From the IMG/VR virus record IMGVR_UViG_3300036820_000020, positions 1 to 59,104 of that record: a stretch of 59,104 nucleotides of DNA, one strand, 5' to 3'. The stretch comes from a virus. Taxonomy: Duplodnaviria > Caudoviricetes. Positions 25,766 to 59,030 of this stretch are shown here, piece by piece. Position numbers and translations under genes: made by a program. How positions within the stretch are numbered: position 1 is the first letter of the stretch; every line of letters starts with the position of its first letter. The notes under the pieces are model-generated. The model saw nothing but the letters and a program-made list of their open reading frames with translations. It was not told where the DNA came from and did not search any database.

Positions 25766-25775
25766 TGCCTTCCCG

Positions 25776-25973: not shown

Positions 25974-25985
25974 CGTTTTGTCTCC

Positions 25986-26174
25986 TTATACGTTGTCTCT
26001 TGAGTCCTGCGGGGACCTGATATTCGTCGGTCCGCCCGCCGCGCTCTTCCGGCTCGCCCCTTTGATGAGTGGTTTGACTGGCCCTTTAGCAACCAGGCCG
26101 TGTCCGGGACTCGCCATCGGACTGCGGACGCCTCCGATCATACCGGCGCCGCCGGGTTTTGAGATTCGCGGCAT
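25986..26174 (-). CDS. Small basic protein (paralog of 25776-25973)
   Basis: GAGG RBS; PGG.G..GG.RSPM....GL..KG..KP motif. Confidence 0.65.
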   Translation of the reverse strand: MPRISKPGGAGMIGGVRSPMASPGHGLVAKGPVKPLIKGASRKSAAGGPTNIRSPQDSRDNV

Positions 26175-26360
26175 TCAAAAACCTCTTTCAACTTTCCAAA
26201 ATCGCGCGCCGGATATACCAGTGGACGTAGATGGACGTAGATGGACGTGGATGTGCTGGCGGTACCCAGCGCGCAGTCTCCGACACAAGAAACACTAACA
26301 ACAACATCATACATCAAATCGACTAGCGAATCGACTAGCGAATCGATATCAGAATCGATA

Positions 26361-27485
26361 TCACATCGGCGGCAGAATGGAAGAAATATCGTGCGATTGC
26401 AGGAACTCACCGCCTAAAGGAAAACTGAATCCGCCGTTGTAAACGAACGGTTTTGGACTCGGCATGATCTCATCATCTTCTTTGACACACTGTCTAAACG
26501 ACTGTTTGAACTCCTCTTCCATCATCTGGATGTAAGCGACCCAGTTGACCTGTCCGAGTTCCTTAGGATATCGTCCGACATTCGCTAGCGCCCATTGGCC
26601 GGCGAACTTCTTGGCTCTGAAAATCACCGCGTCGTCTAAGGCGTAAGAGACGGCTGGCAACCCTGTCGTCATTGTCAGCAACGGGCCTTTCGTGACGTAA
26701 TTGCAGGAAAGGGTATCTGGTCCCAATGGTCCAAGAGCCAAGTCTTCATAGGAAGACGATGGGACAGGGTTCGGATACATTTCATAGACTGGCTGGCCGT
26801 TCGTGTTCTTGCCCCAATACGCCATGATGTAAGCCTGGCCTTGACCACCTCTCTGCGGGTCGATGCGATTCAGTTCCTCTTGTGAAAAGTAGAGCTGGCG
26901 GCCAGCGATTGTATAACCGTTCTCCACGTCAGTCACAGATAGAAACCTGGAGAACTGTATGTCCGTTGTCCCCAATGGAGCAACTGGCAGAAACGGCGCG
27001 GCGTAATAGCACTTCAGGATCTGGTACGCCATTAGGGACGCGGTGTTCTGGCCATACGGCTGGTCGATTGTGATGATACCGGTACCCGTGTCGTAATTAA
27101 CAATGGAATAGTTCGGACCGGTAGGGGCGGCCAGGCCGATATTCGCCGTGCCTAGCCTGATCTGCATTCCGATTCCAAAGACCGGAGAGAAGAGGGGCGG
27201 CGTCAGACCGCTCGAAACATAAGAGTTGATCGCGGCTTGCGCGCTCGCGTCCATCTGGACAGTGGTTGATTGGTAGGTGGCGGCGGCGGTTCCCTGAGTG
27301 ATCACAGCCGGGATAAACAACTGGGCATTGGAGACAATCTGCCAGGACCACATCCGGTAGTCATTGACGTATTTCCAGGCGCGGTTCACAAGCCGCATTG
27401 CTTGCAAGTCGGGAAGCGGCGAGATCTCACCTGTCAGTTCTTTGTAGAGCTGTTGAAAGGTGAGAAGTGGATATGGATTTGCCAT
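26361..27485 (-). CDS. Head-tail adaptor/tail tubular A-like protein
   Basis: TFQQL......VNRAW.......WSW and YEMYPNP motifs typical of adaptors. Confidence 0.55.
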   Translation of the reverse strand: MANPYPLLTFQQLYKELTGEISPLPDLQAMRLVNRAWKYVNDYRMWSWQIVSNAQLFIPAVITQGTAAATYQSTTVQMDASAQAAINSYVSSGLTPPLFSPVFGIGMQIRLGTANIGLAAPTGPNYSIVNYDTGTGIITIDQPYGQNTASLMAYQILKCYYAAPFLPVAPLGTTDIQFSRFLSVTDVENGYTIAGRQLYFSQEELNRIDPQRGGQGQAYIMAYWGKNTNGQPVYEMYPNPVPSSSYEDLALGPLGPDTLSCNYVTKGPLLTMTTGLPAVSYALDDAVIFRAKKFAGQWALANVGRYPKELGQVNWVAYIQMMEEEFKQSFRQCVKEDDEIMPSPKPFVYNGGFSFPLGGEFLQSHDISSILPPM

Positions 27486-27519
27486 TCCTATTCGTCTATT
27501 TGTCTATTTGTCTATTCGT

Positions 27520-27941
<422 letters not shown>

Positions 27942-27945
<4 letters not shown>

Positions 27946-29279
27946 TCATCTATAACAAAAATCACCGTGCCGCCGCTTGTACCTTGATGTTGAACGGCTC
28001 CGCCATCCAGATATCCTACAGTATTTCCACCTGGGAATGTGCCGGGGACGCCGGCCCCTTGTACTAGCGCGCCGCCGCCCGCTGTCGAATTGAGAGCGAA
28101 GTTTGCCGATGACGAATTAACAAACGGATTCGCGGACAGACTGACAATCGACGGTATCTGTTGCGCGCTCCCTGTCAAATTACCGCTGGTGTTACCACCC
28201 GCAAAACAGGAATACAGGTAATTCGACACGTTTGCCGATGTATTGAACCCGTATCCACTGTTGCCGTAGGACAGGCAATTATGACAGGCGGACGACAGGT
28301 TTCCCGTGACTACGGAAACCAGTTTAAATCCATCGCTCGAATTACCAAACGCCGTGCAGTTGATGAAAGCCGCGTTACTGGCGCCGGTGCTATCTTGAAA
28401 GCCGATAGTGTTGTTGTACGATATGCAATCGACTAGATAAGAACTGGAAGACGAGACGCCGAACCCCGTGACATTATTGTCGTGACTTATACATCGCAAT
28501 ACAAATATAGCCTCGATAGCCGGAGAAACAGTCGTGCAACTGGCAATCGCGCATTCGATAGCGGAGCCGCTGGCAATCGCGACATTCGTGAAATTCTCGA
28601 AAAGACACTTGTAAACCGTCGCGGATGAACTGACGAATCCACGGCTGGTGGTCAGATTCGCGCCGCTCAACGCCAGATTCACGAATCTCCCGCCCGCGCC
28701 GCTAGCCAGCATTGTGAACGCGCTGATACCAGACGCCGTAAAAACCGGTTGGTTGCCGTAGTCGCCGCGCGCCGTCTGGTAGCCGATCATCGTGCTTTGA
28801 GACGTGTCGGCGGTGTTGGCCGGCATTGAAATACAGCCGCCCGAGATATTCACGGTAGCTGACGTAATCGAATACGAGGCGTACTGTACGTTGACTACGT
28901 TCCCTCCTACCATGACGTTAGAAGCGTAGCCTGGACTGGCCAGCGCGCCGCCTACGACGCCGCTGGTAGCCGTGAAAGTCCCGAGCGCGCGGTCAACCGT
29001 TACTACGGATGTGCTCGTATAACCGACGATACAGTAAAGTCCCTGGCCGGCGATGTTGATGACGTTGCCGAGCATCGTGTTTAGAAAGCTGCTACTCGAA
29101 TTGGTCAGTGATGTAGTGCCTACGGCGGAAAGGGAAGAGGAAAATGAAACAGTTCCCTGATGGGTACCGTACGTCATATCGACGCCGGTAGCGCCTTTAT
29201 TGGAAGTATCGAATCCGCCGCCGTTCGAATCGCTCCCGGTGGCTTCTACTTCCCAGGCTGTAGCCGCGGTTAATGCCAT
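27942..29279 (-). CDS. Right-handed beta-helix (tailspike/pectate lyase-like) protein
   Basis: Repeated C.S..N..GF units (NCTAFGNSSDGF, NCLSYGNSGYGF); C-terminal GYLDGGAVQ. Confidence 0.7.
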
Positions 29280-29297
29280 AGTCGTCTATAGCTTCGT

Positions 29298-29630
29298 CTA
29301 TAACTGCGTACCGCTCGCGAGATATCCGAGTGTCTCCATAGCTTGAAGAAAAATCGTCATCGTGGAGGCGTTTGAATAGACATTCGCGCCGGTATCGATC
29401 ACCGCGCCATTGATCTGGCGGATGATCGTGGTTGTCGCCGACGCGGACACTTCGGATTCGATAGCCACGTTCCATCCCTGGACGAACGTTAGAATTAGAG
29501 GCATTTGGACAATGACGATATTTTGAAAGATAGCCTGAACCTGTTGATACGCGGCCAATGCTGGAACGTAGCTTGTGAGAAGAAAAGGCTCGGCTACGGA
29601 AGTAACCGATACGCCCGGTGTAGCCGGCAT
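29298..29630 (-). CDS. Hypothetical virion-module protein
   Basis: GAGGAGG RBS; abuts both neighbours. Confidence 0.6.
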   Translation of the reverse strand: MPATPGVSVTSVAEPFLLTSYVPALAAYQQVQAIFQNIVIVQMPLILTFVQGWNVAIESEVSASATTTIIRQINGAVIDTGANVYSNASTMTIFLQAMETLGYLASGTQL

Positions 29631-30395
29631 TTATTGAACCTCCTCAAGATAGCTGACCGTCTGGCTGCCGGTAGACGTGATACCATAGACCGCCGCGCTC
29701 GACCGGATACGCATCGGATAGCCCGCGATACCGACAAGCATCTGACCGGTGGTGGCGGTGACACCGGAGCCGCCGAGAAAAATATTGGTTGTGCCATTGT
29801 TGACAACAACCACGGATATCCGGCTACTGTTGGACGCAATGATTTCCGTGGCTGACGATCCGACGCTTACCTGACCTGTGTTAAAAGTGCTGGCGGTTCC
29901 TTGTACAATTCTCTGGCTGTCGGCAATATTACCAGCGCCAATTGTAACGCTGTTGCCCGCGATCTCAGTGAGATTGACGGGCTGTGTTGTAGTGCCTACA
30001 GGATCGGTACGGACAGGATTGCTGAGAGTGCCGATCTCCGTTCCGCTGTTGTTACGCAGGTTGACATGAACGGCGCGATTCGGAGTGACTCTCTCAGTCC
30101 CTTGCTGGCCGGAGGAGAGAGCGGTAGCGGAGTCGTTATAGACACCGCCGCCGGGGACGAACTGGGAGACACCGGCAGTCCAAGAGGCTTCGTCGGTAAC
30201 GGATAGGCCGCCGCCGCCGCTGCCGGCTTTCACATTGACACAGAGATTGCGCGCGTCATCGAGCGCGACAACGGCCAGGACGCCGCTGGCGGGAGTATCG
30301 GACGGCGCGACCACGCCGGACATGGGTACGCCGGGAGACTGGCCGACGACAAACGGATTCTCGTCTTTTAAAGACGTGCCGCCGGAGATACTCAT
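29631..30395 (-). CDS. Virion structural protein
   Basis: S/T/G-rich; C-terminal R.SVVVVNNGTTNIFLGGSGVT beta-domain. Confidence 0.6.
   Translation of the reverse strand: MSISGGTSLKDENPFVVGQSPGVPMSGVVAPSDTPASGVLAVVALDDARNLCVNVKAGSGGGGLSVTDEASWTAGVSQFVPGGGVYNDSATALSSGQQGTERVTPNRAVHVNLRNNSGTEIGTLSNPVRTDPVGTTTQPVNLTEIAGNSVTIGAGNIADSQRIVQGTASTFNTGQVSVGSSATEIIASNSSRISVVVVNNGTTNIFLGGSGVTATTGQMLVGIAGYPMRIRSSAAVYGITSTGSQTVSYLEEVQ
29988..30000. promoter_or_regulatory. Palindromic site 4 TGTAG-TGC-CTACA
   Basis: Inside a virion gene. Confidence 0.6.
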
Positions 30396-30431
30396 AGACT
30401 ACTGATTCTATCTACTGATTATAATCTACTG

Positions 30432-30623
30432 CTATCGGCTTTTTTGACGGCGATGCTTGGCCGCTATCCTCTTCATGTTCTGAGCGAATATCGCTCTCTT
30501 TTTAGCCTTGCCGCCGCGCTTCTTAGCTGCCGCGATTTTCTTTGAAGTGGCCTTGCCAAACTTGCCGACGGTCCCTTTGCGCTCCATTTCGGACTCGGCG
30601 CCTTGAATCCATTGATCAGCCAT
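30432..30623 (-). CDS. Small basic protein (MADQWIQGA...KRAIFAQNMK)
   Basis: ATG 30623 with AAGG RBS; a Lys/Arg-rich type often seen next to capsid genes. Confidence 0.7.
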   Translation of the reverse strand: MADQWIQGAESEMERKGTVGKFGKATSKKIAAAKKRGGKAKKRAIFAQNMKRIAAKHRRQKSR

Positions 30624-30652
30624 GCTCTGACCTTCGTTAGTTATGACCTTCG

Positions 30653-31021
30653 TCAGTACGGTCCGAAGCCAACAAGTCTTACAGTTTGAGCGGACAAATT
30701 GACAGCTCCGGCCACTTCGGCGCCGGTATGAATAACATACCAAAGCAGTATCCACGTAGGATTATTAGTGCCCTGGTTGTAAGCGGTAGCCTGCATCGCT
30801 ACTACTCCATACTGTCCGTTCGTAGACGCGCCTACCATGAAGATACCTTCAAGGCCCGCGGTGAGACCAAAGTTAGACGGGTTGATCGCCTGTCCCCCTG
30901 TCGGAGGAGTGCCTGTCGTCACTTGTGTGTACGAAGCCGAACCGGCAAAGTCGATGATCGCGTAAGGCCGATCTCCCCACGCGCCGTTACGCGGAGAATC
31001 GGGGAATGGAGTGACCGCCAT
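30653..31021 (-). CDS. Virion structural protein
   Basis: GGAGG RBS; follows the head-decoration candidate. Confidence 0.65.
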   Translation of the reverse strand: MAVTPFPDSPRNGAWGDRPYAIIDFAGSASYTQVTTGTPPTGGQAINPSNFGLTAGLEGIFMVGASTNGQYGVVAMQATAYNQGTNNPTWILLWYVIHTGAEVAGAVNLSAQTVRLVGFGPY

Positions 31022-31036
31022 AAGACTATTCGCCTC

Positions 31037-31714
31037 CTATTGACCGCCTGCCGCTTGGCCTGGATAATAACGCGGCTGGATAAAGACCGGCGAGATCGCG
31101 TTGGCCACCGGCGCGGTCCAGGCGGTACCCAATACCTGTCTAAACTCAGCAGATGTCGGAGAGAGCGACTGTTCCGGATCGTAAGCGTAGATCGTCGAGC
31201 TGTTGTAGTCAGCGAATATCAGGTCGCCCACGGACGGCGTAGCCGAGTATTGAGTGCCGCCGAACTTTACTTGTGCAATCCCGGCAGTCTGAATGAACCA
31301 CCAGTTGCCTTTGGCCGTATTCGTAAGCGCGATACCGGCAGGGACGTACTGGACATTATAATCAGCGGAGACTCTGCACTTGTCGCTTAGGAGATTGCCA
31401 GCCGTCTGCTCGGACCAGAAGACTACTTGTCCTTGTACAGCAGCCGCGGCGATCATGTTAGGGTCAAAGTGTACGTACTGGTAATCTCCGGCGTACAACT
31501 GCTGGCCATTCACCGGGTCAGTATAGTAGTTGGCGTCATCCATCGAGAGAGTTATGATGGTCCCGTACTGGCCACTGTAGGGCTGTACGATAGAGCCTGA
31601 TACTTGTGACGTGGATACGACCGCGCCAGGCGTAGGGTCGCCAGCGTAACTGGCTGTGTTGAGATACCGCTGAGTGATCTGGAGACCCTGGTTAGACCCG
31701 CGAATAGCTGCCAT
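31037..31714 (-). CDS. Putative head decoration/cement protein
   Basis: Directly after the MCP; AGGAGG RBS; GIAL......WWFIQTAG motif. Confidence 0.6.
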   Translation of the reverse strand: MAAIRGSNQGLQITQRYLNTASYAGDPTPGAVVSTSQVSGSIVQPYSGQYGTIITLSMDDANYYTDPVNGQQLYAGDYQYVHFDPNMIAAAAVQGQVVFWSEQTAGNLLSDKCRVSADYNVQYVPAGIALTNTAKGNWWFIQTAGIAQVKFGGTQYSATPSVGDLIFADYNSSTIYAYDPEQSLSPTSAEFRQVLGTAWTAPVANAISPVFIQPRYYPGQAAGGQ

Positions 31715-31743
31715 AAAAGTTCCTCCTTATCCTTTCTCAGTGG

Positions 31744-32973
31744 TTAGCTGGTCGCTCCGAACAGTTGAACGCCAGTCCAGGGAGCTACGTTCTCAGCGTT
31801 GACTGCCGCTTTCAACTGAGAGGCTACTCGGGTGTTGTCTGGAGCGCGGATGAAGTCAGTCGGCATAAAGCCAAACTCGCTCGACGCCGAGAGCCTGAAA
31901 GCAATACGGGTCAAGTTGAACATGCATCCGACTTCGCCGACGGTGATAAGCGTGCTGGTCGGGAAGTTCGAAAGCGTCGTGCCGGCGGTGGTGAATGTGC
32001 CAGTCAGGTTGCTGCCGCCTGGATTAGTTGTCTTGCCGTAGGCCGCAAAGCTCGATGGGAAGTAGTCGTCGATCATTACAATTAGATTCTTGAACCGGAA
32101 CCCCATCGCTCCAAAGAACGGGTCTCTGATCGAAGCGCCTTCCTGCCCGAACCGCTGCTGCTGCTGGATGCGGTTTTCAACGAAGTTGTTGAGCGGCTTG
32201 TTCATCGTGAACAGGTCAGGCTCATCCTGGCCGCGTTTGGCGGTAATATAGGCCGCGTTGATCGCCGCGTACTGGATCGTGCCAGCCGCGCCTGACATTT
32301 GCCCGAGCCAATAGACATTCCCATTCAACGCGGCTCCGATAGCGCCGTTACGCTGAGCGGTCCCGTAGGTCGTGTAGGCGTTGCCGTCGTATGACTTGTC
32401 CACACCGTTGTTGAGGAATTCAACCCAGCCGTTCATGTTGATCGTGCGGGGGGCGATCTGGCCATTCTGCTGAAGGTCCAATGCCATGATAGTGGACATG
32501 GTTAGATAGGCGTTCGCCATATCCGTTTCGAGCAGAGAGAAGACAGCCAGGTCACCCGTGTTCAAGACAGAAATGTCTTCCAAGTATTCGACGATCATCA
32601 CGACGTAATAACGCGGGTCGAAGACGTTTGAGGAGATCGTCAGCGGCTTGGTGAGATTGAAGCCGCCGATTCCCTTGGCGTACGCGCCGCCGATCAGGGG
32701 AGCATACAGTTGGAGGTTGCGCATGAACGCGCCGCCTTCAAAGGGGACGAGACATTTAGACCTGAGATGCGCCTGGAACACGGACGATAGAAAAAATTCG
32801 TCTTCTATCGCGTCCTGATTCACTTCTGGAAGTGTAGTCTCGTTTATCGGATCGAGCAGTGGATCCGCGGCGCCCGCGATCACATGGCTTTTCGACCACT
32901 CGGCCAGTCGCGCCGACCGTTGCTCGCGTGGGAGTGACCAGAACCGCTCGCGCGTTATATAATTGCTTTTCAT
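31744..32973 (-). CDS. Major capsid protein (HK97 fold)
   Basis: 409 aa; follows the scaffold gene; EPDLF..N and GFRFKN..VMIDDY.P motifs. Confidence 0.75.
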   Translation of the reverse strand: MKSNYITRERFWSLPREQRSARLAEWSKSHVIAGAADPLLDPINETTLPEVNQDAIEDEFFLSSVFQAHLRSKCLVPFEGGAFMRNLQLYAPLIGGAYAKGIGGFNLTKPLTISSNVFDPRYYVVMIVEYLEDISVLNTGDLAVFSLLETDMANAYLTMSTIMALDLQQNGQIAPRTINMNGWVEFLNNGVDKSYDGNAYTTYGTAQRNGAIGAALNGNVYWLGQMSGAAGTIQYAAINAAYITAKRGQDEPDLFTMNKPLNNFVENRIQQQQRFGQEGASIRDPFFGAMGFRFKNLIVMIDDYFPSSFAAYGKTTNPGGSNLTGTFTTAGTTLSNFPTSTLITVGEVGCMFNLTRIAFRLSASSEFGFMPTDFIRAPDNTRVASQLKAAVNAENVAPWTGVQLFGATS

Positions 32974-47325: not shown

Positions 47326-48387
47326 ATGAATCCATATCCACAACGGATAGAAGAGCTTCATAATCATTTAGAGTCTGTCTGGAGCCACCGGGACAGACAG
47401 GCGACAGAAATCCTGCTGGCTTCGATGCTTGATCCAAAGCTGACAGGCTTGAACCGCCCCTGGATCATATTGGAGACCGACTGGCCGAGCCGGGACTGTT
47501 CGAACGCCTGGTTTGCCTTCGGGGGAGCCCATCATCCCCAGTCAATGTCGGTCGCTAGAGTATTGCGGATGCCGCTGTGCGAAGACGCCATACAGGCCTG
47601 GCTGGGAGAAAAGAGGCTGGGGGGACCAGGCCTGTTGATCGAGTCCGAGTGGCGGAAGCCGGCGGGGACACACAATCCAAAACTGACAGCGCTGTGGCAT
47701 AGTTACCTGGTGTTGATGGCGAGCTGCGTCAGGATGAGAGCCGATTGTCCGAAGGGCGAATTCGGCATGAGACCAGTAGGAGAAAGACTGGCGGCTATTG
47801 AAGAATTGAAAAGACTGACGAATCGGGTTTTAGACGGCTCGTGGAGATCTCCACTTACACCTACGACCGCGGGCGCTAGAGATAGTAACGGTAACAGTAA
47901 CAGTAACAGTAACAGTAATAGTAACAGTCATCAGGTGGTGAAATCATTCTTATATTGGTGTGAGCTGTTGCAGCGTGCCGCGCCGCTTCAGACTGACTGG
48001 GACGTGTTGACCGGCGCCCTGACAGCGGTCGCGGGCGGTATCGCGCTGTTGTATATGGACGGGAGAGGTCCGGATTGGATCGCCGCCGAAAGGCTGATGA
48101 GAGACATGATTCACCCGGACACCGTAGAGCTCATGAAATTGACCGCTGTCGATAGAGCCGCGGCCACATTGCAGTACCGGCGCCTGAAGCAGACGCGGTC
48201 AAGGAAGAATGACTGGAGAAGCGACGGGATCGCGGTAGAGATTAAGAGACTGGCGAGAGAGAAAGTCATTGTGAAAAGAGACGGCTGGAAAGAGAAAGAC
48301 CACGCCGCGTATTATCCATGGAAGTATCGAGTGGCCGCCGAAGACTGGAACGAATTGATAGATAGAAGCAAACGGATATTGATTTGA
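47326..48387 (+). CDS. Hypothetical protein with (NS)n insert
   Basis: Long ORF, likely ATG 47326. The N-terminus weakly resembles the N-terminal helical region of the ATPase at 55947. Confidence 0.65.
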   Translation: MNPYPQRIEELHNHLESVWSHRDRQATEILLASMLDPKLTGLNRPWIILETDWPSRDCSNAWFAFGGAHHPQSMSVARVLRMPLCEDAIQAWLGEKRLGGPGLLIESEWRKPAGTHNPKLTALWHSYLVLMASCVRMRADCPKGEFGMRPVGERLAAIEELKRLTNRVLDGSWRSPLTPTTAGARDSNGNSNSNSNSNSNSHQVVKSFLYWCELLQRAAPLQTDWDVLTGALTAVAGGIALLYMDGRGPDWIAAERLMRDMIHPDTVELMKLTAVDRAAATLQYRRLKQTRSRKNDWRSDGIAVEIKRLAREKVIVKRDGWKEKDHAAYYPWKYRVAAEDWNELIDRSKRILI

Positions 48388-48475
48388 TTTAGTCTGAGTG
48401 GGCTCGCTCGTGACAGGACAGGCTAGGCCAGGCCAGGCTTGGCCAGGCTTGGCCTGCCTGTCTGTCACTCGCTCG

Positions 48476-48521
48476 CGTCAAAAGTCTGACGTGACCGACC
48501 GTCAAAAGTCTGACGTGACCG
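48476..48521. repeat. 22-bp direct repeat CGTCAAAAGTCTGACGTGACCG x2
   Basis: Copies at 48476-48497 and 48500-48521, abutting a TGTAG-N3-CTACA site. Confidence 0.85.
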
Positions 48522-48534
48522 TGTAGGCGCTACA
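48522..48534. promoter_or_regulatory. Palindromic site 7 TGTAG-GCG-CTACA
   Basis: Intergenic; CCGTGTAGGCGCTACA is identical to site 9 and to site 10 (inverted). Confidence 0.8.
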
Positions 48535-48816
48535 AAAATCACGCTAATTATTGCAATTAAATACCTGAAAAACATCATTCAATTTTAGTTTTAAAAGGGG
48601 AAGTGTGGAGGTACGTTCAGAACACTATTGCGCATTTGAACCCTCGGACAATTCGCCGGCGTGGCCCGGCCCTGGCCCAGACCGGCCCAGACTGGCCTGG
48701 ACTAGCCTAGACTGTCCTGGCTCGCATCGCTGTACACCGTCTGCTGGTGTATATAGCTGCCGGATGGTCTGAGTGGCGAACATCATACGAATATCGAATG
48801 ATGTCTATCAGATACA

Positions 48817-48844
48817 AGTTAACATAATGCCCGTTATCGGAAGC
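48817..48844 (-). promoter_or_regulatory. dif-like XerC/XerD recombination site GCTTCCGATAA-CGGGCA-TTATGTTAACT
   Basis: 11-6-11 architecture. The XerD arm is 10/11 identical to E. coli TTATGTTAAAT. Located in the largest non-coding region. Confidence 0.75.
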
Positions 48845-49271
48845 TGCATAGCAGCACTGAGACGTGGTGTGGAGTGGTGTGACGAGGTGTGACTTAGTGT
48901 TTGACTTAGTGTTGTTATATAGCTCGCAAGCGGCTTGACGCCGCTTGCTCGCTTGTGTTAGTGTATTGTAAGTGTATGAGAACGTTGGATGTTACCTGTA
49001 TTAACGACTTCTCATGCATGTATTAACCGTAGGTAACTTGATAGCTTGAGCGGCAGTCGCCCTTCCCCGTTCCCAGTTCATTCTGATCATACCATCAGCT
49101 AGAGACACCAACCAAATAGCCATTGCCACTGCCAGGAGCCCGTAGGATGCATCGATTCTGAGATGGTGGTATGTGGCTACGCATTCGTACCGCTGACCGC
49201 TACGCGGTCAACAGGCCGCCTGCTTCGCTCATAGTCAGCCCGTCACCTGGTTTGCTATCCAAAGACAACTG

Positions 49272-49302
49272 TTGACACTTTCGTGCTTGTCAGATATATA
49301 TT
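49272..49302 (+). promoter_or_regulatory. Sigma70-type promoter for the early accessory genes
   Basis: TTGACA followed by TATATA/TATATT at 17-19 nt spacing; ATG at 49307. Confidence 0.55.
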
Positions 49303-49306
49303 GAGC

Positions 49307-49537
49307 ATGGAAAAACGAATTGTAGTCATCGCCGCGGTGAGCCAAGAGCAACTCGAAAACGACGGATGTGATGTCGAGCAGGAATGTGACACCATCGCAC
49401 ACGCCAAGCAGCGCGCCAAGTACTACCTCACCGAGGAGTATATGAACTCAGCGGAATCCACCACCATGCTGGGATACTCCCAGGTAAAGGTGAACGGCGT
49501 AGTTGAGTACGATTTCTTCGGAAAGGGGGTGAAGTGA
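49307..49537 (+). CDS. Small hypothetical protein
   Basis: Downstream of the promoter; GTGA overlap with the next gene. Confidence 0.65.
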   Translation: MEKRIVVIAAVSQEQLENDGCDVEQECDTIAHAKQRAKYYLTEEYMNSAESTTMLGYSQVKVNGVVEYDFFGKGVK

Positions 49538-50100
49538 TCATGAGACTGATTGACACCATTCACCAAGCCGGCAGCGGGACCGGCCTCGACGGAGCCAATC
49601 TCAGTTGGTCTGACCTCCGCAAGGCTCGCTTCAGCGGTGTATGCCTCAGCCAAGCCAATCTTAGCTGGTCCGACCTCCGCGGGACCGATCTCAGCGGGGT
49701 CAATTTACGCGGGGCCAATCTCCGCGGGGCATGCCTCAGCGGGGCCGATCTCCGCGGGGCCGATCTTAGCGGAGCCGACCTCCGCGGGACCGACCTCAGC
49801 GGGGCCAACCTACGCGGAGCCGATCTCAGCGGAGCCGATCTCAGCGGAGCCGACCTCAGCGGGGCCGACCTCAGTTGGTCCGACCTCAGCGGGGCCAACC
49901 TCAGCGGAGCCAACCTCAGCGGAGCCAACCTCAGCGGGGCCGATCTCAGCGCGGCGGACCTCCGCGGGGCCAATCTCAGTTGGTCCAATCTTAGCTGGTC
50001 TGACCTTCGCGGAGCCAATCTCCGCGGATCCAATCTCCACGGCGCATGCCTTAACGGTACCTGTCTCAACGGACTGTTAAACAAAGAGGTACTACTGTGA
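49534..50100 (+). CDS. Pentapeptide-repeat protein
   Basis: About 30 A(D/N)L(S/R)G units. Confidence 0.92.
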   Translation: MIMRLIDTIHQAGSGTGLDGANLSWSDLRKARFSGVCLSQANLSWSDLRGTDLSGVNLRGANLRGACLSGADLRGADLSGADLRGTDLSGANLRGADLSGADLSGADLSGADLSWSDLSGANLSGANLSGANLSGADLSAADLRGANLSWSNLSWSDLRGANLRGSNLHGACLNGTCLNGLLNKEVLL

Positions 50101-50126
50101 ACATTGCGGAGTACGGGTACTGAGCT

Positions 50127-50333
50127 ATGACTAAACTTGAAAAACTCATGTACGACTCCGGCTATTACGTTGAATCCACTTTCAATACTCGTGCTGGAGC
50201 CGATGGAGCGGCAGACGATATCGAACGTTGCGGACAAGGGCAAGCAACTCAGGTGCGCCGATCCCACGTGGGCTGGACGCTGTGGGTCGAGACGGATAAG
50301 GCGCGCAACAAGCGCGGATTGGCAATTGGCTAG
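50127..50333 (+). CDS. Small hypothetical protein
   Basis: ATG-initiated ORF in the + strand accessory cluster. Confidence 0.55.
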   Translation: MTKLEKLMYDSGYYVESTFNTRAGADGAADDIERCGQGQATQVRRSHVGWTLWVETDKARNKRGLAIG

Positions 50334-50337
50334 AAAA

Positions 50338-50481
50338 ATGACTAAACCCACTCTCTCACTTGTATTGTGTGTTTGGATTCTGATCGCGACTGGCGCATGG
50401 AGACCGATCGCGATCGCAGTCCAAGCCACACGGCAGATCACTACAGTATTGCGCCAGGCATCAGAGGTACTATCGCGATGA
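50338..50481 (+). CDS. Small membrane protein
   Basis: MTKPTLSLVLCVWILIATGAW hydrophobic segment; ATGA-coupled to the next gene. Confidence 0.5.
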   Translation: MTKPTLSLVLCVWILIATGAWRPIAIAVQATRQITTVLRQASEVLSR

Positions 50482-50690
50482 AAACGCTGCTTTTCTTGCT
50501 CGAATGGCTGGGCGGCCCCGGCGACTTTCCAGCCAGCCGCAATAGCAATATGAAAGAACTACTGAGCGCGCGGGGCTCCGCGGCGGTCGAGGCGCGGTTG
50601 ATGCTTCGGGCTCTTTTGGAAGCCTGGCCGGCGCTCCTGCTGGCACTCATGTTTGTTTGCTGGCTGTTTATTCCGGAGGGCCACCGCTAA
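50478..50690 (+). CDS. Small membrane protein
   Basis: GAGG RBS; C-terminal transmembrane segment. Confidence 0.5.
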   Translation: MKTLLFLLEWLGGPGDFPASRNSNMKELLSARGSAAVEARLMLRALLEAWPALLLALMFVCWLFIPEGHR

Positions 50691-50788
50691 TGTTCGCGCG
50701 ATTTGAGTTGGTTTTGCGGCAGCCCTGGTTTTGTGCTTTTATTACCGGGCTGTTCCTGGGCGCCCGGTTTGCCCTGCTGAGTCAGTGA
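50690..50788 (+). CDS. 32-aa hydrophobic peptide MFARFELVLRQPWFCAFITGLFLGARFALLSQ
   Basis: GGAGG RBS; TAATG overlap; not in the ORF track. Confidence 0.5.
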   Translation: MFARFELVLRQPWFCAFITGLFLGARFALLSQ

Positions 50789-50794
50789 CAACGC

Positions 50795-50956
50795 ATGAAT
50801 AAAATGAATGTCTTTGATGATGAGGTCGAATGTGCCGCTCAATCCGACTGCGAGCTCATAGTCTTCCTAGCGCTATCCGGACTTTCGCTTTTCGAAGCGC
50901 GCGCATATATCAATTCCATCGATTCCACCATCGATATGTGCTCAAACACTAACTAA
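50795..50956 (+). CDS. Small hypothetical protein MNKMNVFDDE...
   Basis: Fills the gap; not in the ORF track. Confidence 0.4.
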   Translation: MNKMNVFDDEVECAAQSDCELIVFLALSGLSLFEARAYINSIDSTIDMCSNTN

Positions 50957-50991
50957 ATCAAACAGTCCCCTTTTGAGAAGGAGAAAAAACA

Positions 50992-51222
50992 ATGCAACAC
51001 GACGGAAGCTGCGATAAAACGTGCGGTCACGCGCTCGACACCATAATCGTTCCCTACACTCAAGCCGTCCAACAGCTTTTGGACCACGATCCTCGCGTGG
51101 TCGAATACGAAGAAATTGACAGCGAATGGCTGGAAGTTGTCTATGCTTACCGCCGGACGGTGGCCGCGATCTACTACGCCGCAGCCGCGCAGTTGCGGAT
51201 AAAAGAGTTGGCTGGACGCTAA
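50992..51222 (+). CDS. Small hypothetical protein
   Basis: AAGGAG RBS. Confidence 0.65.
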   Translation: MQHDGSCDKTCGHALDTIIVPYTQAVQQLLDHDPRVVEYEEIDSEWLEVVYAYRRTVAAIYYAAAAQLRIKELAGR

Positions 51223-51291
51223 AAGGAACGCGCGGGGCTCCGCGGCAATCGAGGCGCGAGTCAGTGACGCCCAGGCCAAGGAGACCCGCGT

Positions 51292-51355
51292 CCAGAAGTC
51301 CAGAAGTCAGAAGTCCAGAAGTCAGAAGTCCAGAAGTCAGAAGTCCAGAAGTCCA
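51292..51355. repeat. AGAAGTC(C) heptad/octad array
   Basis: About 8 units; inverted copies at about 51474-51495. Confidence 0.85.
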
Positions 51356-51371
51356 GGACCCTTTTCCCATG

Positions 51372-51414
51372 CACCCCGAGGAGCCTGACGGCTCTCGGGG
51401 TGTTTCTGTTTTTA
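51372..51414 (+). terminator. Intrinsic terminator
   Basis: CACCCCGAG..GAGC...GCTC.TCGGGGTG hairpin followed by TTTCTGTTTTT. Confidence 0.65.
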
Positions 51415-51453
51415 CAATGAAAAAGACCCTACACGCCGCTTCCAATCGCGCCG

Positions 51454-51466
51454 TGTAGGGTCTACA
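51454..51466. promoter_or_regulatory. Palindromic site 8 TGTAG-GGT-CTACA
   Basis: Intergenic; extra half-site at about 51424-51435. Confidence 0.75.
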
Positions 51467-51496
51467 TCGCTACGAACTTCAGACTTCTGACTTCTG

Positions 51497-52579
51497 TTAG
51501 TTCCGGGAGGCCATTTCTGGCACATTCAGGCCAATCTCGGCAAAGTCATCTACCTGAATCCCTGGCTGGGATCGGAGATAGCTTGTACTAACTGGCAGTT
51601 TTTCCGATTCCTCCAGGATCAATTCCAGAGCCGAAGTTTTCAGCCTGTCGCCGCTTCCAAACAGCGCTGATTCCGCCCGGCCATCGCCTTTCGTAGTCCT
51701 GGCGTGGTCAGTGTAGTTTGTAATCGCGTTTAGCAGGCACAATGGCGTGCCGGCTTGGACCGGGAACGCGCTGTTGTCATTCGATTCATAAAGCGCCGAG
51801 ATCGCGGCAAGTATGTTATCTCGCCTGGCCGAATGGACTTCTTTCGATTCATCTTTGGCTTGCTTGCGAATGGGAAACAATCGATCGAGGATAGCCGCGT
51901 AGCTGTCGTGAGTCATCCGCCGGCTAGCCAGAAAGTTCAGCTTTTGCTCGACTGTCTCTGTGTCTTTTCGAAAAGCTTGCAAAGCCTGTTGGGCGTCGGC
52001 GATTTTGGCGCCGGCGTTAACCGTATGCCGAATTTTGAATTGCGCGGAAGCGTTCTCGCTGAGCGCGACATTCAAAGTGTTTTGGCAAACAACTCTTTCG
52101 ATACAAGTCCGGAGCTGATAGCTCATAGATCCGTCATGCCCCGTGGCGAACAGTAGATACGGTTTGCTTTCGTCTTCGCCGACGTGAATCCGCAGTCCCA
52201 GGTCCGCCAAACCCCATACGACTTCGCCTTTCCCAAGTGCTCCCGCGGTTTCGTAGTGGGCGCCATCCGTGGCTGTCATCAGCTTATCGATCAATTCAAA
52301 TCCGGATGCGTGATTGATAATACGGTAGTCTTTGCCAACTGTGCCAAGGAATTCCGCGGCGCCGGCATTCTTCATAATTTTGTCCTGATGGTTCCAGCGG
52401 AACACTCCCCAAGCTTCAACTGGCCGATTCAGACTGTCTTTGAGCTGTGACTTGAACACGTCGAAGTCCAGGCCTCCGGCGGCCAAGATTTCCTGCCAGG
52501 TCATATAGCGGCCAGTGACCTGTCCGAGTGAATGCCAAGCCGCCTGCCGTCCGATATAAGTGTTGATGTTGTGTGCCAT
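51497..52579 (-). CDS. DUF932 family (phage/plasmid TIGR03299-like) protein
   Basis: AWHSLG, YETAGAL..G, HDGS, RVVCQNTL, IRHT and NAITNY.DH motifs. Confidence 0.88.
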   Translation of the reverse strand: MAHNINTYIGRQAAWHSLGQVTGRYMTWQEILAAGGLDFDVFKSQLKDSLNRPVEAWGVFRWNHQDKIMKNAGAAEFLGTVGKDYRIINHASGFELIDKLMTATDGAHYETAGALGKGEVVWGLADLGLRIHVGEDESKPYLLFATGHDGSMSYQLRTCIERVVCQNTLNVALSENASAQFKIRHTVNAGAKIADAQQALQAFRKDTETVEQKLNFLASRRMTHDSYAAILDRLFPIRKQAKDESKEVHSARRDNILAAISALYESNDNSAFPVQAGTPLCLLNAITNYTDHARTTKGDGRAESALFGSGDRLKTSALELILEESEKLPVSTSYLRSQPGIQVDDFAEIGLNVPEMASRN

Positions 52580-52771
52580 TTTTCTACCAGCCCTTTCGTA
52601 TCTGGTAAATCAAATAATGCCACGGTCCTATCCTCTGTTACAAAAGGCAACATAAAATATCTGTGGAAAACTTTATAAAATTGTTGAAAACATTGGCAAT
52701 GTGGTTTTTCATTTTTTGTACGAACAATGCATTTCAGGCTATTATTGTGACTGTAGGTTAGAACAACCGAG

Positions 52772-53029
52772 GTGAACACAATGAACACAATGAACACAAT
52801 GAACACAACAAACGCGCCCGAGACGGCAGAAATGCAAATACTAACCAGACACCCCTGCGGCAAGCCAATGCCGTACCCGTCTGGCTGGAGTGGAGGCCAA
52901 GTCTGGAACTGTCCAGAATGCGGAGGAAACTGGGTGGAGGGGGAAGAACAACGCCATGAAACTGTGACGGAATGGATCACGCTGGTCGCGCTAATCACGC
53001 TGGCGTCAATTTTGCAAGGTGCAAAATGA
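52772..53029 (+). CDS. Small Zn-ribbon/membrane hypothetical protein
   Basis: GAGGTG RBS; MNT repeats; CPECG motif; hydrophobic tail. Confidence 0.55.
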   Translation: MNTMNTMNTMNTTNAPETAEMQILTRHPCGKPMPYPSGWSGGQVWNCPECGGNWVEGEEQRHETVTEWITLVALITLASILQGAK

Positions 53030-53086
53030 TTAACCTAGCGGGCTTAAGCCTATCTGGCACGCCGTAGAATTCCGCAGATCGGACGG

Positions 53087-53869
53087 CTACTGCATCCGCA
53101 TCATCTCGGTGAATTCGTCCAGGTCTTTATCCCATTCCCGCTGGTCTACCGCTGTCTGGCTCAACATGTTTTTCAGCCGGTATTCCGGCGGGATTGGTTT
53201 TGTAGGCTCTCCAAAGAATCCACGGATTTTGCCGTCTACTCTTTTGACATTCCGCGGCTCGTAAAAGGTAGCTAACGCCTCCGCGGCCCTGTCACGGCTG
53301 GACATTCCAGGCATTCCCGGCAGATACGGCACAATACCGCGTAAAGAGACGTAGTGGAATCCAAACTGGCGCGTGTACTGTTCCATTCTCCAATCAAACT
53401 CGCCGCCGTAGGGATAAAAACGCTTCCAGTTTGGACAGGTCTCGCCCGCCATATCTTTCAAGGTACGGGCGAAATTGCGCGCATATCCGCGTGGCACAAC
53501 GAAAATCCCAGCACAGCACGAACAGGCTGCCTGCCACAAATCAGTCTCATAGTCGCGCCCAATCACTTCCAATCCGCGGCCTGGTTTTTGTCCAATCGCG
53601 GCGCCTTCGATGCCCCGGTTGCCGGCACTATTCCAAACTTTCAGACCAGCGTACTCGATTCCTCCATTCTTTTGTGGCCGTCTCCGGCAGCCGCAGGAGT
53701 AAACGGAAGCGTAGTAAAGCTGCCGGTAGTTCACTTCTATCTCTTGGCCACACTCACAGAGGCACACAGCTCCTTCCCGCCAGGAATCAGGGTCTACTGA
53801 CCTGGAAATTCTTAAAAGAGTGCCTTTGACTATCTGTTTGTCTTTGAAAACATTAGACTTAGTTAGCAC
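53087..53869 (-). CDS. Hypothetical protein with homing-endonuclease-like CxCxCG...SCGC motifs
   Basis: AGGAG RBS; CLCECG and SCGC motifs; no HNH or AP2 core recognised. Confidence 0.6.
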   Translation of the reverse strand: MLTKSNVFKDKQIVKGTLLRISRSVDPDSWREGAVCLCECGQEIEVNYRQLYYASVYSCGCRRRPQKNGGIEYAGLKVWNSAGNRGIEGAAIGQKPGRGLEVIGRDYETDLWQAACSCCAGIFVVPRGYARNFARTLKDMAGETCPNWKRFYPYGGEFDWRMEQYTRQFGFHYVSLRGIVPYLPGMPGMSSRDRAAEALATFYEPRNVKRVDGKIRGFFGEPTKPIPPEYRLKNMLSQTAVDQREWDKDLDEFTEMMRMQ

Positions 53870-54224: not shown

Positions 54225-54253
54225 TTGACTTCACCGGCATCTATTGTTACGCT
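54225..54253 (+). promoter_or_regulatory. Promoter of the HTH-parB-replication operon
   Basis: TTGACT-N17-TACGCT with an extended TG; ATG at 54263. Confidence 0.55.
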
Positions 54254-54262
54254 GGTGTGCTA

Positions 54263-54619
54263 ATGCCGGAAAATCTACCACCGGGACCACCGCCGGAAAT
54301 CCCGCCAGCGTCAAAAATCCCCCGGTCGCCGCTTTTTCCCAATCGCGGCGCCGGCACATCTGGAAAGAAACCGGTCCTATACCCCGATATCAGTTTTCAG
54401 TTGCTAGGCCAGGCGGTCGGCATAGATCCGACCTACGCTGGCAGGATTATGAACGGCAAAGTCCGCCCGTCGATGCAAGTAGCGGAACGGTTGGCCGCGG
54501 TGATGGGATGGACGGTAGACCAGGTGGCCGCGTTATACCACAGCCAAAAAACCGAGGCACTCAAAAGAGTCAAAAGAGTCAAAAGCGTCAAAAGAGTCAA
54601 AAGCATCCGAATGAGTTAA
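54263..54619 (+). CDS. XRE/Cro-like HTH transcriptional regulator
   Basis: LGQAVGIDPTYAGRIMNGKVRPSMQVAERLAAVMG. Confidence 0.8.
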   Translation: MPENLPPGPPPEIPPASKIPRSPLFPNRGAGTSGKKPVLYPDISFQLLGQAVGIDPTYAGRIMNGKVRPSMQVAERLAAVMGWTVDQVAALYHSQKTEALKRVKRVKSVKRVKSIRMS

Positions 54620-54621
54620 AA

Positions 54622-55887
54622 ATGGCAAGAGTAGAAACCAACGTCGAAACCGGGAGCGAAAGTGAAAGCGATCTGCTTCTACTTCACTCTCCGCTTACAG
54701 ACCGGATCGTTTTCGTTCGTCCAGCCCGTCTGAAGATTGAAAAACTCAACCACGCCAGGCCAGGACCAACTCCACCGCAAGAGCAATCCAGACTCTCTTC
54801 ACTAGCCCAGTCTATGAGGGAGAATGGCCAGTTGACTCCTGTACTAGTCACTGAGTATAGCGGCAGCGGCGGTAACGGCTCCTGGGACTACGCTTTGATC
54901 GACGGTAGGCGCCGGCGTGACGCCGCGCTCCTGATCGAACGCGAAGACAGCATGGAATTCCCATTAGCCTGTGTGGTCGCGTCCGGTCTAGACGACCCTT
55001 TGAAAGCTGGCATCCACGCCAACAAACACGCCCCTCTGACCCCTTTGCAATTCGCCTATCTGTGTAAGCAAGTCAGAAAAGTACACGGATGGCATGGCAC
55101 AAAGGAAGTCGCGGAGTACCTTGGGGTGTCTAGAGCGCAGGTTAGTCAACACGACAAGTTGCTTACCAGACCGGAAGGCATGACCAAGTCCGCCTATGAA
55201 GACCTGTTGTCCAAGGTGGGAAGTAGGCGATGGGGTAGCGAAGCGGCTTTCTATACTCTTACGCACGTAGAACCAGTAAAAGCCGATCAGGTGATAGCCA
55301 GAGCGGAGGAATTGGCCACTGAAGAAACCGGGGAAACCGAGGAATTTTCTGAAGTGCCCGAAGAATCGTCAGAATCGCCCCAGGAAGCATCGGAATACGA
55401 AGAGAGCCAGTCGGATACCTCTACCCCTCAACAAATCGATCCTGGAGAGTCTGAGACGCGGCAAACAGGCAAAGAGAAACGGGTGAGGAGTGACGGGAAG
55501 CGTGACAAAGACATCAAAACACCGGAATGGATGAAAGAACAGAAGCAGAAATCGAAAGAGAGAGTAGCGGCCAAAAAAGCGGCTAAAACGACAGCTAAAG
55601 AGACAGCCAGACCGTCCGCGTCTGTTGGACGCAGGCATGTTGAAAAAGCGGCCAGGGAAGCCGCGGCTCTCAAATCGACGGCGCCGCAATCGCAATCCAG
55701 AGGCGTTCCGGATCTCCTTCGCCTTTTGGAATTACTAAGTGGAGATGGATATCCGAAACTGATGAGGGAGTTTGCGGATGCGCTGCGGACTTCCTGGTGG
55801 ACAGGCCAAGTCGATGATGAACATATCGTGTGGCGGTGGGAGGCTATCGCTTCCGATGTCAGGTTCAGGTACGAGCGGGAAGGTTAG
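54622..55887 (+). CDS. ParB-family (KorB/Spo0J-like) protein with HTH
   Basis: LAQSMRENGQLTPVLV, LIDGRRR (GxxR CTP-binding patch), HAN, and HTH TKEVAEYLGVSRAQVSQH. Confidence 0.85.
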   Translation: MARVETNVETGSESESDLLLLHSPLTDRIVFVRPARLKIEKLNHARPGPTPPQEQSRLSSLAQSMRENGQLTPVLVTEYSGSGGNGSWDYALIDGRRRRDAALLIEREDSMEFPLACVVASGLDDPLKAGIHANKHAPLTPLQFAYLCKQVRKVHGWHGTKEVAEYLGVSRAQVSQHDKLLTRPEGMTKSAYEDLLSKVGSRRWGSEAAFYTLTHVEPVKADQVIARAEELATEETGETEEFSEVPEESSESPQEASEYEESQSDTSTPQQIDPGESETRQTGKEKRVRSDGKRDKDIKTPEWMKEQKQKSKERVAAKKAAKTTAKETARPSASVGRRHVEKAAREAAALKSTAPQSQSRGVPDLLRLLELLSGDGYPKLMREFADALRTSWWTGQVDDEHIVWRWEAIASDVRFRYEREG

Positions 55888-57307: not shown

Positions 57308-57562
57308 GTGATTGCGGCAATAGTTCAAGCAGGATATCAATGGTCGTGGTCGTGGTCGCGGTCGGGGTCGCGGTCGGGGTCGTGGTCGTGGCCGGGGTCT
57401 CGGTCGTTGTCTTGGTTGTGGTCGCGGTCGGGATCGGGGTCAGGGTCGCGGTCGCAGTCGTGGTCGTGGTCGTGGTCGGGGTCGGAGTCACGGTCGTGGT
57501 CGTGGTCAGGGTCGGGTTCGAAGTTAAGCAAAGGAAAACAAAAATGGCAAACGAAAACGTAA
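57308..57562 (+). CDS. Ser-X repeat peptide, unit 0 (MIAAIVQAGYQ-WSWSWSRSG...)
   Basis: Start is GTG 57308 or TTG 57272; divergent leader; Ser at alternating positions. Confidence 0.6.
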   Translation: MIAAIVQAGYQWSWSWSRSGSRSGSWSWPGSRSLSWLWSRSGSGSGSRSQSWSWSWSGSESRSWSWSGSGSKLSKGKQKWQTKT

Positions 57563-57828: not shown

Positions 57829-58037
57829 ACGCTGCCGTCTTACTGACTGTATACGAACAGTCGAGTTGGTCGCGATCGCGGTTGGGTTAGCGGTCGTGGT
57901 CGCGGTCGTGGTCGCGGTCGGGGTGGTGGGTGTGGTCGGGGTCGCGGTCTGGGTCGCGGTCGGGGTTGGGGTCGCGGTCTGGGTCGCGGTCGGGGTTGGG
58001 GTCGCGGTCACAGTCGGGGTCACGGTCGAATTGGTGA
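57825..58037 (+). pseudogene. Ser-X repeat peptide, unit 1, with premature TAG at 57888
   Basis: MNAAVLLTVYEQSSWSRSRLG*RSWSR...SNW*. The frame stays open to the conserved SNW-TGA. Confidence 0.7.
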
Positions 58038-58041
58038 GGTC

Positions 58042-58296
58042 ATGGCCACTGTCTTACTAAGCATATACGAACAGTCGAGTTGGTCGGGGTCGAGGTCGGG
58101 GTCGGGGGCGGGGTCGGGGTCGCGGGCGGGGTCGCGGTCGCGGTCGCGGGCGGGGTCGCGGTCGAGGTCGTGGTCGTGGTCATGGTTGTGGTCACGGTCG
58201 TGGTCGTGGTCGCGGTCGGGGTCGTGGTCACGGTCGGGGTCGCGGTCGGGGTCGCGGTCGCGGTCGGGGTCGTGGTCGGGGTCGCGGTCAAATTAG
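58042..58296 (+). CDS. Ser-X repeat peptide, unit 2
   Basis: GAGG RBS; leader MATVLLSIYEQSSW. Confidence 0.7.
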   Translation: MATVLLSIYEQSSWSGSRSGSGAGSGSRAGSRSRSRAGSRSRSWSWSWLWSRSWSWSRSGSWSRSGSRSGSRSRSGSWSGSRSN

Positions 58297-58347
58297 TAAG
58301 GTCGCGGTCGGGGTCGTGGTCGGGGTCACGGTCGAATTGGTGAGGTC

Positions 58348-58536
58348 ATGGCCGTTGTCTTACTAATCGTGTACGAACAGTCGAGTTGGTCGGGGTCGCG
58401 GTCAGGGTCTCGGTGGCGTTCGCGGTCGGGGCCGCGGCCGTGGCCGTGGTCTGGGTCGCGGTCACGGTTGTGGCCGTGGCCGTGGTCGCGGTCGGGGTCG
58501 TGGTCACGGTCGCGGTCGGGGTCGCTCGGAAACTGA
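58348..58536 (+). CDS. Ser-X repeat peptide, unit 3
   Basis: GAGG RBS; leader MAVVLLIVYEQSSW. Confidence 0.7.
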   Translation: MAVVLLIVYEQSSWSGSRSGSRWRSRSGPRPWPWSGSRSRLWPWPWSRSGSWSRSRSGSLGN

Positions 58537-58537
58537 G

Positions 58538-58801
58538 ATGAACGCCGTATTACTAGCCCTATACGAACAGTCGAGTTGGTCGCGATCGCGGTTGGGGACG
58601 CGGTCGTGGTCGTGGTTGTGGTCGTGGTCGCGGTTGCGGCCTTGGCCGGGGTCGTGTTCGCGGTCGGGACCGGGGTTATGGTCGTGGTCGTGGGTGGGGT
58701 CGGGGCCGCGGTCTGGGTCGTGGTCGGGGTCGTGTTCGCTGTCGCGGTCGGGGTCTCGGTCGCGGTCGGGGTCGTGGTCGGGGTCACGGTCGAATTGGTG
58801 A
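58538..58801 (+). CDS. Ser-X repeat peptide, unit 4
   Basis: TGA-G-ATG coupling; leader MNAVLLALYEQSSW. Confidence 0.7.
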   Translation: MNAVLLALYEQSSWSRSRLGTRSWSWLWSWSRLRPWPGSCSRSGPGLWSWSWVGSGPRSGSWSGSCSLSRSGSRSRSGSWSGSRSNW

Positions 58802-58805
58802 GGTC

Positions 58806-59030
58806 ATGGCCGTTGTCTTACTAATCGTGTACGAACAGTCGAGTTGGTCGGGGTCGCGGTCAGGGTCGTGGGTGCGGTCGTGGTCGTGGGTGCGGTCGTG
58901 GTCGCGGTCGCGGTCGCGGTCGTGGTCGTGGTTGTGGCCGTGGCCGCGGTCGCGGTCGGGGTCGTGGTCACGGTCGCGGTCGGGGTCGCGGTCACAGTCG
59001 GGGTCGGAGTCAAGGTCAACAATTAAATGA
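58806..59030 (+). CDS. Ser-X repeat peptide, unit 5
   Basis: GAGG RBS; leader MAVVLLIVYEQSSW; stop overlaps the helicase ATG. Confidence 0.7.
   Translation: MAVVLLIVYEQSSWSGSRSGSWVRSWSWVRSWSRSRSRSWSWLWPWPRSRSGSWSRSRSGSRSQSGSESRSTIK

Follow-up and report, generated by a model that had tools for sequence, protein, structure and literature searches.

A dif-type Xer core site lies at 48817..48844 on the minus strand of the window, by which we mean the whole 59,104-base IMG/VR record that was analysed. From 48844 to 48817, the minus strand reads GCTTCCGATAA CGGGCA TTATGTTAACT, with an 11-6-11 layout and the inner ATAA/TTAT, as the initial annotation had stated. The XerC-type arm (GCTTCCGATAA) spans 48834-48844, the 6-bp centre CGGGCA spans 48828-48833, and the XerD-type arm (TTATGTTAACT) spans 48817-48827, all on the minus strand. 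The site was assigned from its sequence, a consensus scan, and the identity of its arms to bacterial sites. No ORF of at least 50 aa with a start codon overlaps it, and the site is non-coding.

The site is embedded in a repeat-rich, non-coding stretch of 0.9 kb (48388..49282) that contains no ORFs and shows no DNA similarity to related phages. This stretch forms the left part of a lineage-specific variable slot (48388..53086) without protein or DNA counterpart in relatives, which also contains a pentapeptide-repeat protein gene (49534..50100, plus strand), a DUF932 protein gene (51497..52579, minus strand), both recognised by profile search, and small ORFs. The left edge of the slot is a conserved gene on the plus strand (47326..48387), which was characterised by gene mapping and fold and encodes a 353-aa protein starting with MNPYP, and the next gene common to the relatives after the slot is located at 53087-53869. 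A promoter-like element (TTGACA - 17 nt - TATATA; 49272..49300, plus strand), read directly from the sequence, precedes the rightward genes; our promoter scan passed it over, as the rule applied there requires the second hexamer to have T as its sixth base. The 353-aa gene belongs to an unknown family and is divergent from the late operon, and its protein contains a low-complexity (SN)n insert encoded by AGTAAC repeats at 47884-47928. At the DNA level, the pentapeptide-repeat gene is 66-74% similar to pentapeptide genes from phages of Caulobacter, Acinetobacter, and Rheinheimera and from cyanobacterial plasmids. An antisense open frame of 293 aa (49560-50441) was dismissed as an artefact of the pentapeptide repeat.

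Several repeats were found by a repeat scan around the site. Inverted repeats of 43 nt with 79% complementarity, made of GGCCAGGC-type units (48412..48716; fold z = -4.0), flank an AT-rich stretch and a pair of perfect 22-nt direct repeats (48476-48521). Each of the 22-nt repeats carries a CGTCA/TGACG palindrome, and the ~300-bp element at 48412-48716 may be a protein-binding array or an insertion of the MITE type. A palindrome with 11-nt arms (48780..48804) lies 13 bp from the XerD-type arm, and two 12-nt direct repeats (48887..48912) lie on the XerC-arm side, followed by a hairpin with 14-nt arms (48921-48953). We do not take the repeats near the site as marks of an origin or a centromere, because most of this genome's intergenic regions are occupied by short tandem repeats. 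Repeats of 5-18 nt occur in nearly every intergenic gap (e.g., 12511-12628 and 57341-57520), and the genome also contains a perfect CCGCCGCCAG array of 11.8 copies. Furthermore, ~184 GGTCGY hexamers form a 1.1-kb array at 57868-59006 that adjoins the terminal overlap, and the final 2 kb of the window have a G+C content of 62% and a GC skew of 0.29.

The record is classed as DTR (direct terminal repeats) and as 100% complete. An exact overlap of 127 bp, which includes unique sequence, is common to both ends, and the assembly closes as a circle. Genes for a helicase, a Sak4-like protein, an ERCC4 nuclease, and a 963-aa family-A DNA polymerase are located on the plus strand, from ~49.3 kb via the ends to 12.5 kb, while the minus strand between 12.8 and 47.2 kb encodes the large terminase (TerL), portal, scaffold, and major capsid protein (MCP). 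The TerL and MCP show 29% (E 2e-75) and 27.7% identity, respectively, to those of the podovirus Tunturi_1, and the only cultured phages matched by the MCP were the podoviruses Tunturi_1 and Tunturi_2 of the acidobacterium Tunturiibacter. The label of a podovirus-like phage given in the initial annotation therefore fits. In the published text excerpted from PMC11924767, the Tunturi phages are described as causing lytic infections in culture, and putative integrase and recombinase ORFs were noted by the authors. The single public run that holds the phage sequence is a soil metagenome, which is probably its source. No recognisable repressor was found among the phage ORFs scanned, and Rfam and tRNA scans of the genome gave no match.

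The phage site shows no mismatch to the IUPAC dif consensus. With up to two mismatches allowed, the consensus has no other match in the window (mean of 0.01 matches in 100 shuffles), and ATAA-N6-TTATG also occurs once. There is no second site or half-site in the window, the next best candidate having 6/22 arm mismatches. An exact consensus match on either strand is expected 2.0e-5 times per genome (analytic). The initial annotation had compared the arms with E. coli dif (XerD arm, 10/11 matches) and B. subtilis dif (XerC arm, 8/11). The XerD-type arm also matches the Vibrio dif motif, as printed in the excerpted text of PMC12715192, at 10/11 positions.

All 22 arm bases, with any centre, were found in the genomes of 11 bacterial species, with 0.07 expected at uniform composition. 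According to the record titles, these comprise seven Bacillota, one acidobacterium, one planctomycete, one Omnitrophota, and one Nitrospinota. The consensus was single-copy in all five of the genomes tested among these species, and in a single complete chromosome it was located at 2.35 of 4.82 Mb (48.8%). Because the arms equal those of single-copy chromosomal sites, which bear the marks of chromosomal dif, we regard the phage site as a bona fide dif-type site. Judged by its sequence, the 28-mer is a genuine Xer-type core site, which is predicted to be bound by XerC and XerD. The exact 28-mer was absent from all the other viral and metagenome contigs that we searched.

As stated in the initial annotation, the genome contains no recognisable tyrosine or serine recombinase. 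Six-frame searches of the window with PF00589 and PF00239 gave no candidate at E ≤ 1, and the two models matched 14/14 and 13/14 control genomes, respectively. The recombinases of related phages left no recognisable remnant in the window (tblastn, best E = 0.13); the integrase of one relative gave a faint tblastn match at 48662-48850, which was not significant (E = 0.44). We also considered the 353-aa gene at 47326-48387 as a cryptic integrase and rejected it, since its structural model (mean pLDDT 65) has no recombinase fold. The best PDB matches of this model were AAA+/MCM/D5-type ATPases, all weak (E ≥ 0.03).

The relatives used for comparison were 28 TerL-related loci in viral contigs with 41-80% identity, and five whole relatives were compared, four of them complete. 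No closer relatives were found among viral contigs in searches with two neighbouring proteins, and the nearest MCP homologs (P0001, P0004, P0009, and P0014) had 89-92% identity among the 120 listed of 152. According to gene-by-gene mapping, the relatives have kept the late block as well as the gene at 47326-48387. Four of the five whole relatives encode PF00589 tyrosine recombinases. The regions corresponding to the window's variable slot (48388-53086) are 20366-27936 in G001 and 27309-32772 in G002, and in both genomes this region contains an Xer-like tyrosine recombinase gene. G003 and G004 have an integrase of 405-438 aa that lies 3-6 kb downstream of the 47326-48387 homolog, and a second recombinase of ~305 aa elsewhere, which has an Xer-like Phage_int_SAM_1 domain plus a catalytic domain. 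The ~305-aa recombinases of the relatives are 43-64% identical among themselves, and no shared palindromic site was found beside the relatives' recombinase genes. In G002, the Xer-like recombinase gene of this region (31122-32360) is split by ~270 bp with stop codons, and this split gene may be a pseudogene or may contain an inserted element.

Conservation of the site in relatives had been proposed beforehand as a test of its function, and it was not observed. None of the 28 TerL-related loci carried the site at up to 5/22 arm mismatches, and none of the five whole relatives had a credible site. The consensus matched the five whole relatives only once at up to three mismatches; this match has three mismatches, disrupts the inner palindrome in each of its halves, and falls within an open frame of 134 aa. 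With 0.33 matches expected by chance per genome, it is at chance level. The absence of the site from relatives does not refute its function, since it is expected if one module was swapped for another. The clade normally keeps its own recombinase in this slot, where the window phage has a host-type site instead, and the arrangement looks like a module swap. Given that tyrosine recombinases are the rule for the clade in this genome part, a host-type site in a member lacking an integrase represents a sensible substitution.

We therefore consider that the best single explanation of the locus is a substrate for the XerC and XerD of the host, which would replace the clade's own tyrosine recombinase module in the same slot, since the site is real and non-coding, has no accompanying recombinase, and lies in the recombinase slot of the relatives. 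We assign this reading a probability of roughly one half. After injection, the phage genome would circularise, and host XerC would bind the GCTTCCGATAA arm and XerD the TTATGTTAACT arm. Two routes could follow. The phage site could recombine with the chromosomal dif of the host to give an integrated prophage, as in IMEXs (integrative mobile elements that exploit Xer). Alternatively, a circular phage genome that has become a dimer could be returned to monomers by recombination between its two sites, during a plasmid-like carrier state. Xer binding, recombination, and a lysogenic or carrier state of this phage are all predicted from its sequence.

The two routes appear about equally plausible. 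None of the listed dif centres of candidate hosts, which are mostly AT-rich, is identical to CGGGCA, and the nearest ones of chromosomal type share 4/6 positions. In VGJphi, missing homology on one side of the centre keeps the corresponding recombinase out of the reaction, according to the excerpted text of PMC5357621. Because of the mismatched centre, exchange with an ordinary AT-rich dif would be hindered unless the dif of the true host is unusual. Two copies of the phage's own site have no centre mismatch, and for this reason we rank multimer resolution level with integration. A six-frame search with PF12375 gave no candidate for a DUF3653/XafT-type activator.

The 28-mer had been expected to predict the host, and it proved unsuited to this purpose, as its arms fit many phyla and fit Bacillota at least as well as Acidobacteriota. 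A site within three mismatches was found in 74/301 Acidobacteriota genomes (including the unpublished genome G208, on which no claim depends), and 71 of the 74 had exactly one; a reversed control matched 5 genomes in the Acidobacteriota search. The site was found within three mismatches in 110/301 Bacillota genomes, with more near-exact matches than in Acidobacteriota. A Firmicutes-type dif profile serves many phyla, as reported in the excerpted text of PMC3025954. The kinship of the phage to Tunturiibacter phages and its soil origin point weakly to Acidobacteriota as the host phylum.

The initial annotation had suggested a search for related prophages at dif, and none was found at dif or elsewhere in ~400 genomes each of Acidobacteriota and Bacillota. 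The MCP gave a weak match in 1/401 Acidobacteriota genomes and none in 401 Bacillota genomes, without an integrated copy. In a large protein collection, 152 MCP homologs were found at E ≤ 1e-20, and the longest contig among the 120 listed has 68,684 bases, which is phage-sized. Contigs of the source run cross the site at a depth of 22 without a joint, and no loose end at the site was seen among the 6 shown of 24. Likewise, no hybrid att junctions at the site were found in source-run and metagenome contigs; it should be noted that these were Logan contigs, which drop rare variants, so rare junctions could escape such a search.

The initial annotation had also placed the site in a maintenance module together with ParB and its sites, and this part of the proposal is not supported. 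The ParB-like gene (54244..55887, plus strand) matches PHROG 1033 (7e-18), and its ParB_N score of 19.5-22.4 bits is below the Pfam cut-off of 26.3. No ParA-type ATPase (AAA_31) was found in the window and no Rep among the phage ORFs scanned, i.e., plasmid-type partition and replication genes were not found in this phage. Furthermore, the ParB-like gene is also present in G001 and G002, both of which are without the site, and we therefore leave it out of any module tied to the site. Of the original proposal that the phage integrates at host dif or persists as a phage-plasmid, the genuine Xer-type site and the lack of an own recombinase stand, and the ParB module and a related prophage are not supported.

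We also searched 2.9 million viral contigs for comparable sites. The 18-base core of the site, with any centre, was found in 52 other viral records with 42 distinct 28-mers, compared with 18 records and 8 distinct sequences for a reversed-core control. When only full-consensus matches were counted, there were 31 distinct sequences versus 4 in the control. From these counts, we estimate that a full-consensus match in a viral contig is non-chance ~85-90% of the time, and we count these sites in favour of the host-Xer reading. Furthermore, 32/42 real sites and 2/8 control matches lie outside any open frame of at least 100 aa, and 6/8 control matches lie inside open frames of at least 150 aa. The dif-type sites of these other contigs (loci L014-L065) are mostly non-coding.

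In some viral lineages, the site is kept between relatives at ~80-96% DNA identity. One pair (L024/L038) keeps it at ~85% DNA identity, and another (L037/L060) has an identical 28-mer with ~80-90% DNA identity in patches. Two further pairs (L031/L025 and L018/L037) have only 29-39 bp around the site in common, the contigs being otherwise unrelated. A tyrosine recombinase was found in 8 of the 46 records tested (of 52), and 7 of the 12 site-bearing records that are at least 90% complete lack one; a 216-kb DTR genome is among these seven. The inner 20-mer with the centre CGGGCA was found in four metagenome contigs (L136-L139), which have the XerC-type arm and the centre and a degenerate XerD side. 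Two of the four are related to each other and none is kin to the phage, while Pfam was uninformative. We consider these four contigs near chance.

Alternatively, the site may be a passenger without a role in the phage. The phage would then be a virulent, integrase-less derivative of a temperate clade, and the site would have been acquired recently with horizontal DNA, from a plasmid, an IMEX, another phage, or the terminus region of a host, in a slot with fast turnover. We regard this as a serious alternative, albeit a somewhat unlikely one. It is consistent with the lack of any counterpart of 48388-53086 in relatives at the protein or DNA level, the accessory pentapeptide-repeat and DUF932 genes in the slot, the absence of the site from all relatives examined, and the absence of an integrated or junction form from the genomes and contigs searched. 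The phage's own family-A DNA polymerase and helicase, together with the lytic nature of its nearest cultured relatives, also speak against a working site. Furthermore, the site is carried by one genome only, which gives no basis for measuring selection. However, an unselected 28-mer should decay, yet the phage site fits the consensus at every constrained position, and other viral lineages have retained similar sites in relatives that have diverged from each other. In addition, no donor was found, as searches of the slot DNA against phages and plasmids matched only the pentapeptide-repeat gene, and a coincidence would be needed to place the site in the recombinase slot of the relatives.

It is improbable that the 28-mer merely resembles dif by chance. 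The first-stage scan took in very many windows, this window is rich in short repeats and palindromes, and the reversed control still matched 18 viral records (8 distinct sequences) in 2.9 million contigs. However, a genome is expected to contain only ~2e-5 matches, real chromosomal sites have the same 22 arm bases, and the phage site is non-coding, whereas most control matches lie in long open frames; the 31 versus 4 distinct full-consensus sequences also argue against chance.

Finally, an imperfect palindrome serving as an operator or origin element for a phage protein, with convergent likeness to dif, would fit the direct repeats, palindromes, and AT-rich stretch around the site, the adjoining conserved gene with its weakly AAA+/MCM-like predicted fold, and a position ~430 bp upstream of the promoter-like element, but it is very improbable, as the arms are asymmetric in the exact XerC/XerD manner and identical to those of bacterial dif sites, most intergenic regions are full of short repeats anyway, and the fold matches are not significant (best E 0.03, mean pLDDT 65).

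A host-Xer substrate in this phage would share features with several known systems. The plasmid sites cer and psi need ~180 bp of accessory sequence that binds PepA/ArgR/ArcA, whereas no comparable accessory sequence is recognisable beside the phage site, and no plasmid replication or ParA gene was found in the phage. The resemblance of cer (ColE1) and psi (pSC101) to the phage site is that each is a single Xer core with a non-dif centre on a circular replicon without its own recombinase, as described in the excerpted text of PMC5357621. IMEX elements (CTXphi, VGJphi, TLCphi, and the dif-type double jelly-roll vibriophages) also resemble it in having a dif-like site with both Xer arms and no integrase of their own, to the extent covered by excerpts of PMC12715192 and PMC5357621. 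However, these elements are filamentous or tailless and smaller than ~16 kb, whereas this phage is tailed, has a 59-kb genome, and encodes its own DNA polymerase. Unlike for IMEXs, no integrated copy, attL/attR, or XafT- or RstR-type neighbours were found here, and the centre is unlike the candidate host dif sites seen. A published parallel to the proposed module swap is a group of tailless vibriophages that includes members of both the int type and the dif type (PMC12715192, in excerpt).

Phage-plasmids, such as P1 with Cre-lox (PMC5357621) and the Bacillus plasmid prophages with XerC/D-like genes, are tailed phages that keep a circular prophage monomeric, as far as the excerpted sources describe them. 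They carry their own resolution recombinase, whereas this phage has a site without an enzyme, and its relatives have the ~305-aa Xer-like recombinases. The Acinetobacter pdif modules, according to similarly partial sources, have Xer-type sites with variable centres that border exchangeable accessory DNA. However, pdif modules have two inversely oriented sites, and the phage has a single one. We found no tailed phage relying on a dif-like site without its own recombinase in the literature searched, in which few subscription journals were covered.

In the papers found, the use of host XerCD by viruses concerns filamentous and tailless phages and satellites. If the host-Xer reading of this locus is true, a missing integrase gene could not exclude lysogeny or a carrier state in tailed phages, and programs that predict lifestyle would wrongly label such phages virulent. 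Elements much larger than so far known would also use the dif locus as a landing site. The int-type relatives and the dif-type genome provide a ready natural comparison. A broader view, which we put forward tentatively and regard as possible rather than probable, is that tailed dsDNA phages can be IMEXs, and that, in this clade of ~52-64-kb soil podovirus-like phages, one slot can hold either a self-encoded tyrosine recombinase module or, in its place, a bare host-type dif site. The dif-like sites in unrelated viral contigs might then reflect a widespread, overlooked route by which Caudoviricetes integrate or persist as circles via host XerCD.

A different arrangement of Xer-type cores was seen in the acidobacterial genome G276, which has 12 copies (plus 2 more degenerate ones) of a ~170-bp repeat with a full Xer-type core (L108-L113). 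The XerC arm of this core is identical to that of the phage, and its centre is CGGCCA or CGCCCT. The repeat copies, which had no Rfam match, sit between small accessory genes (PIN, Uma2, and beta-flower) and may represent an array of the cassette or module type. In addition, G276 contains a single ordinary dif-like site.
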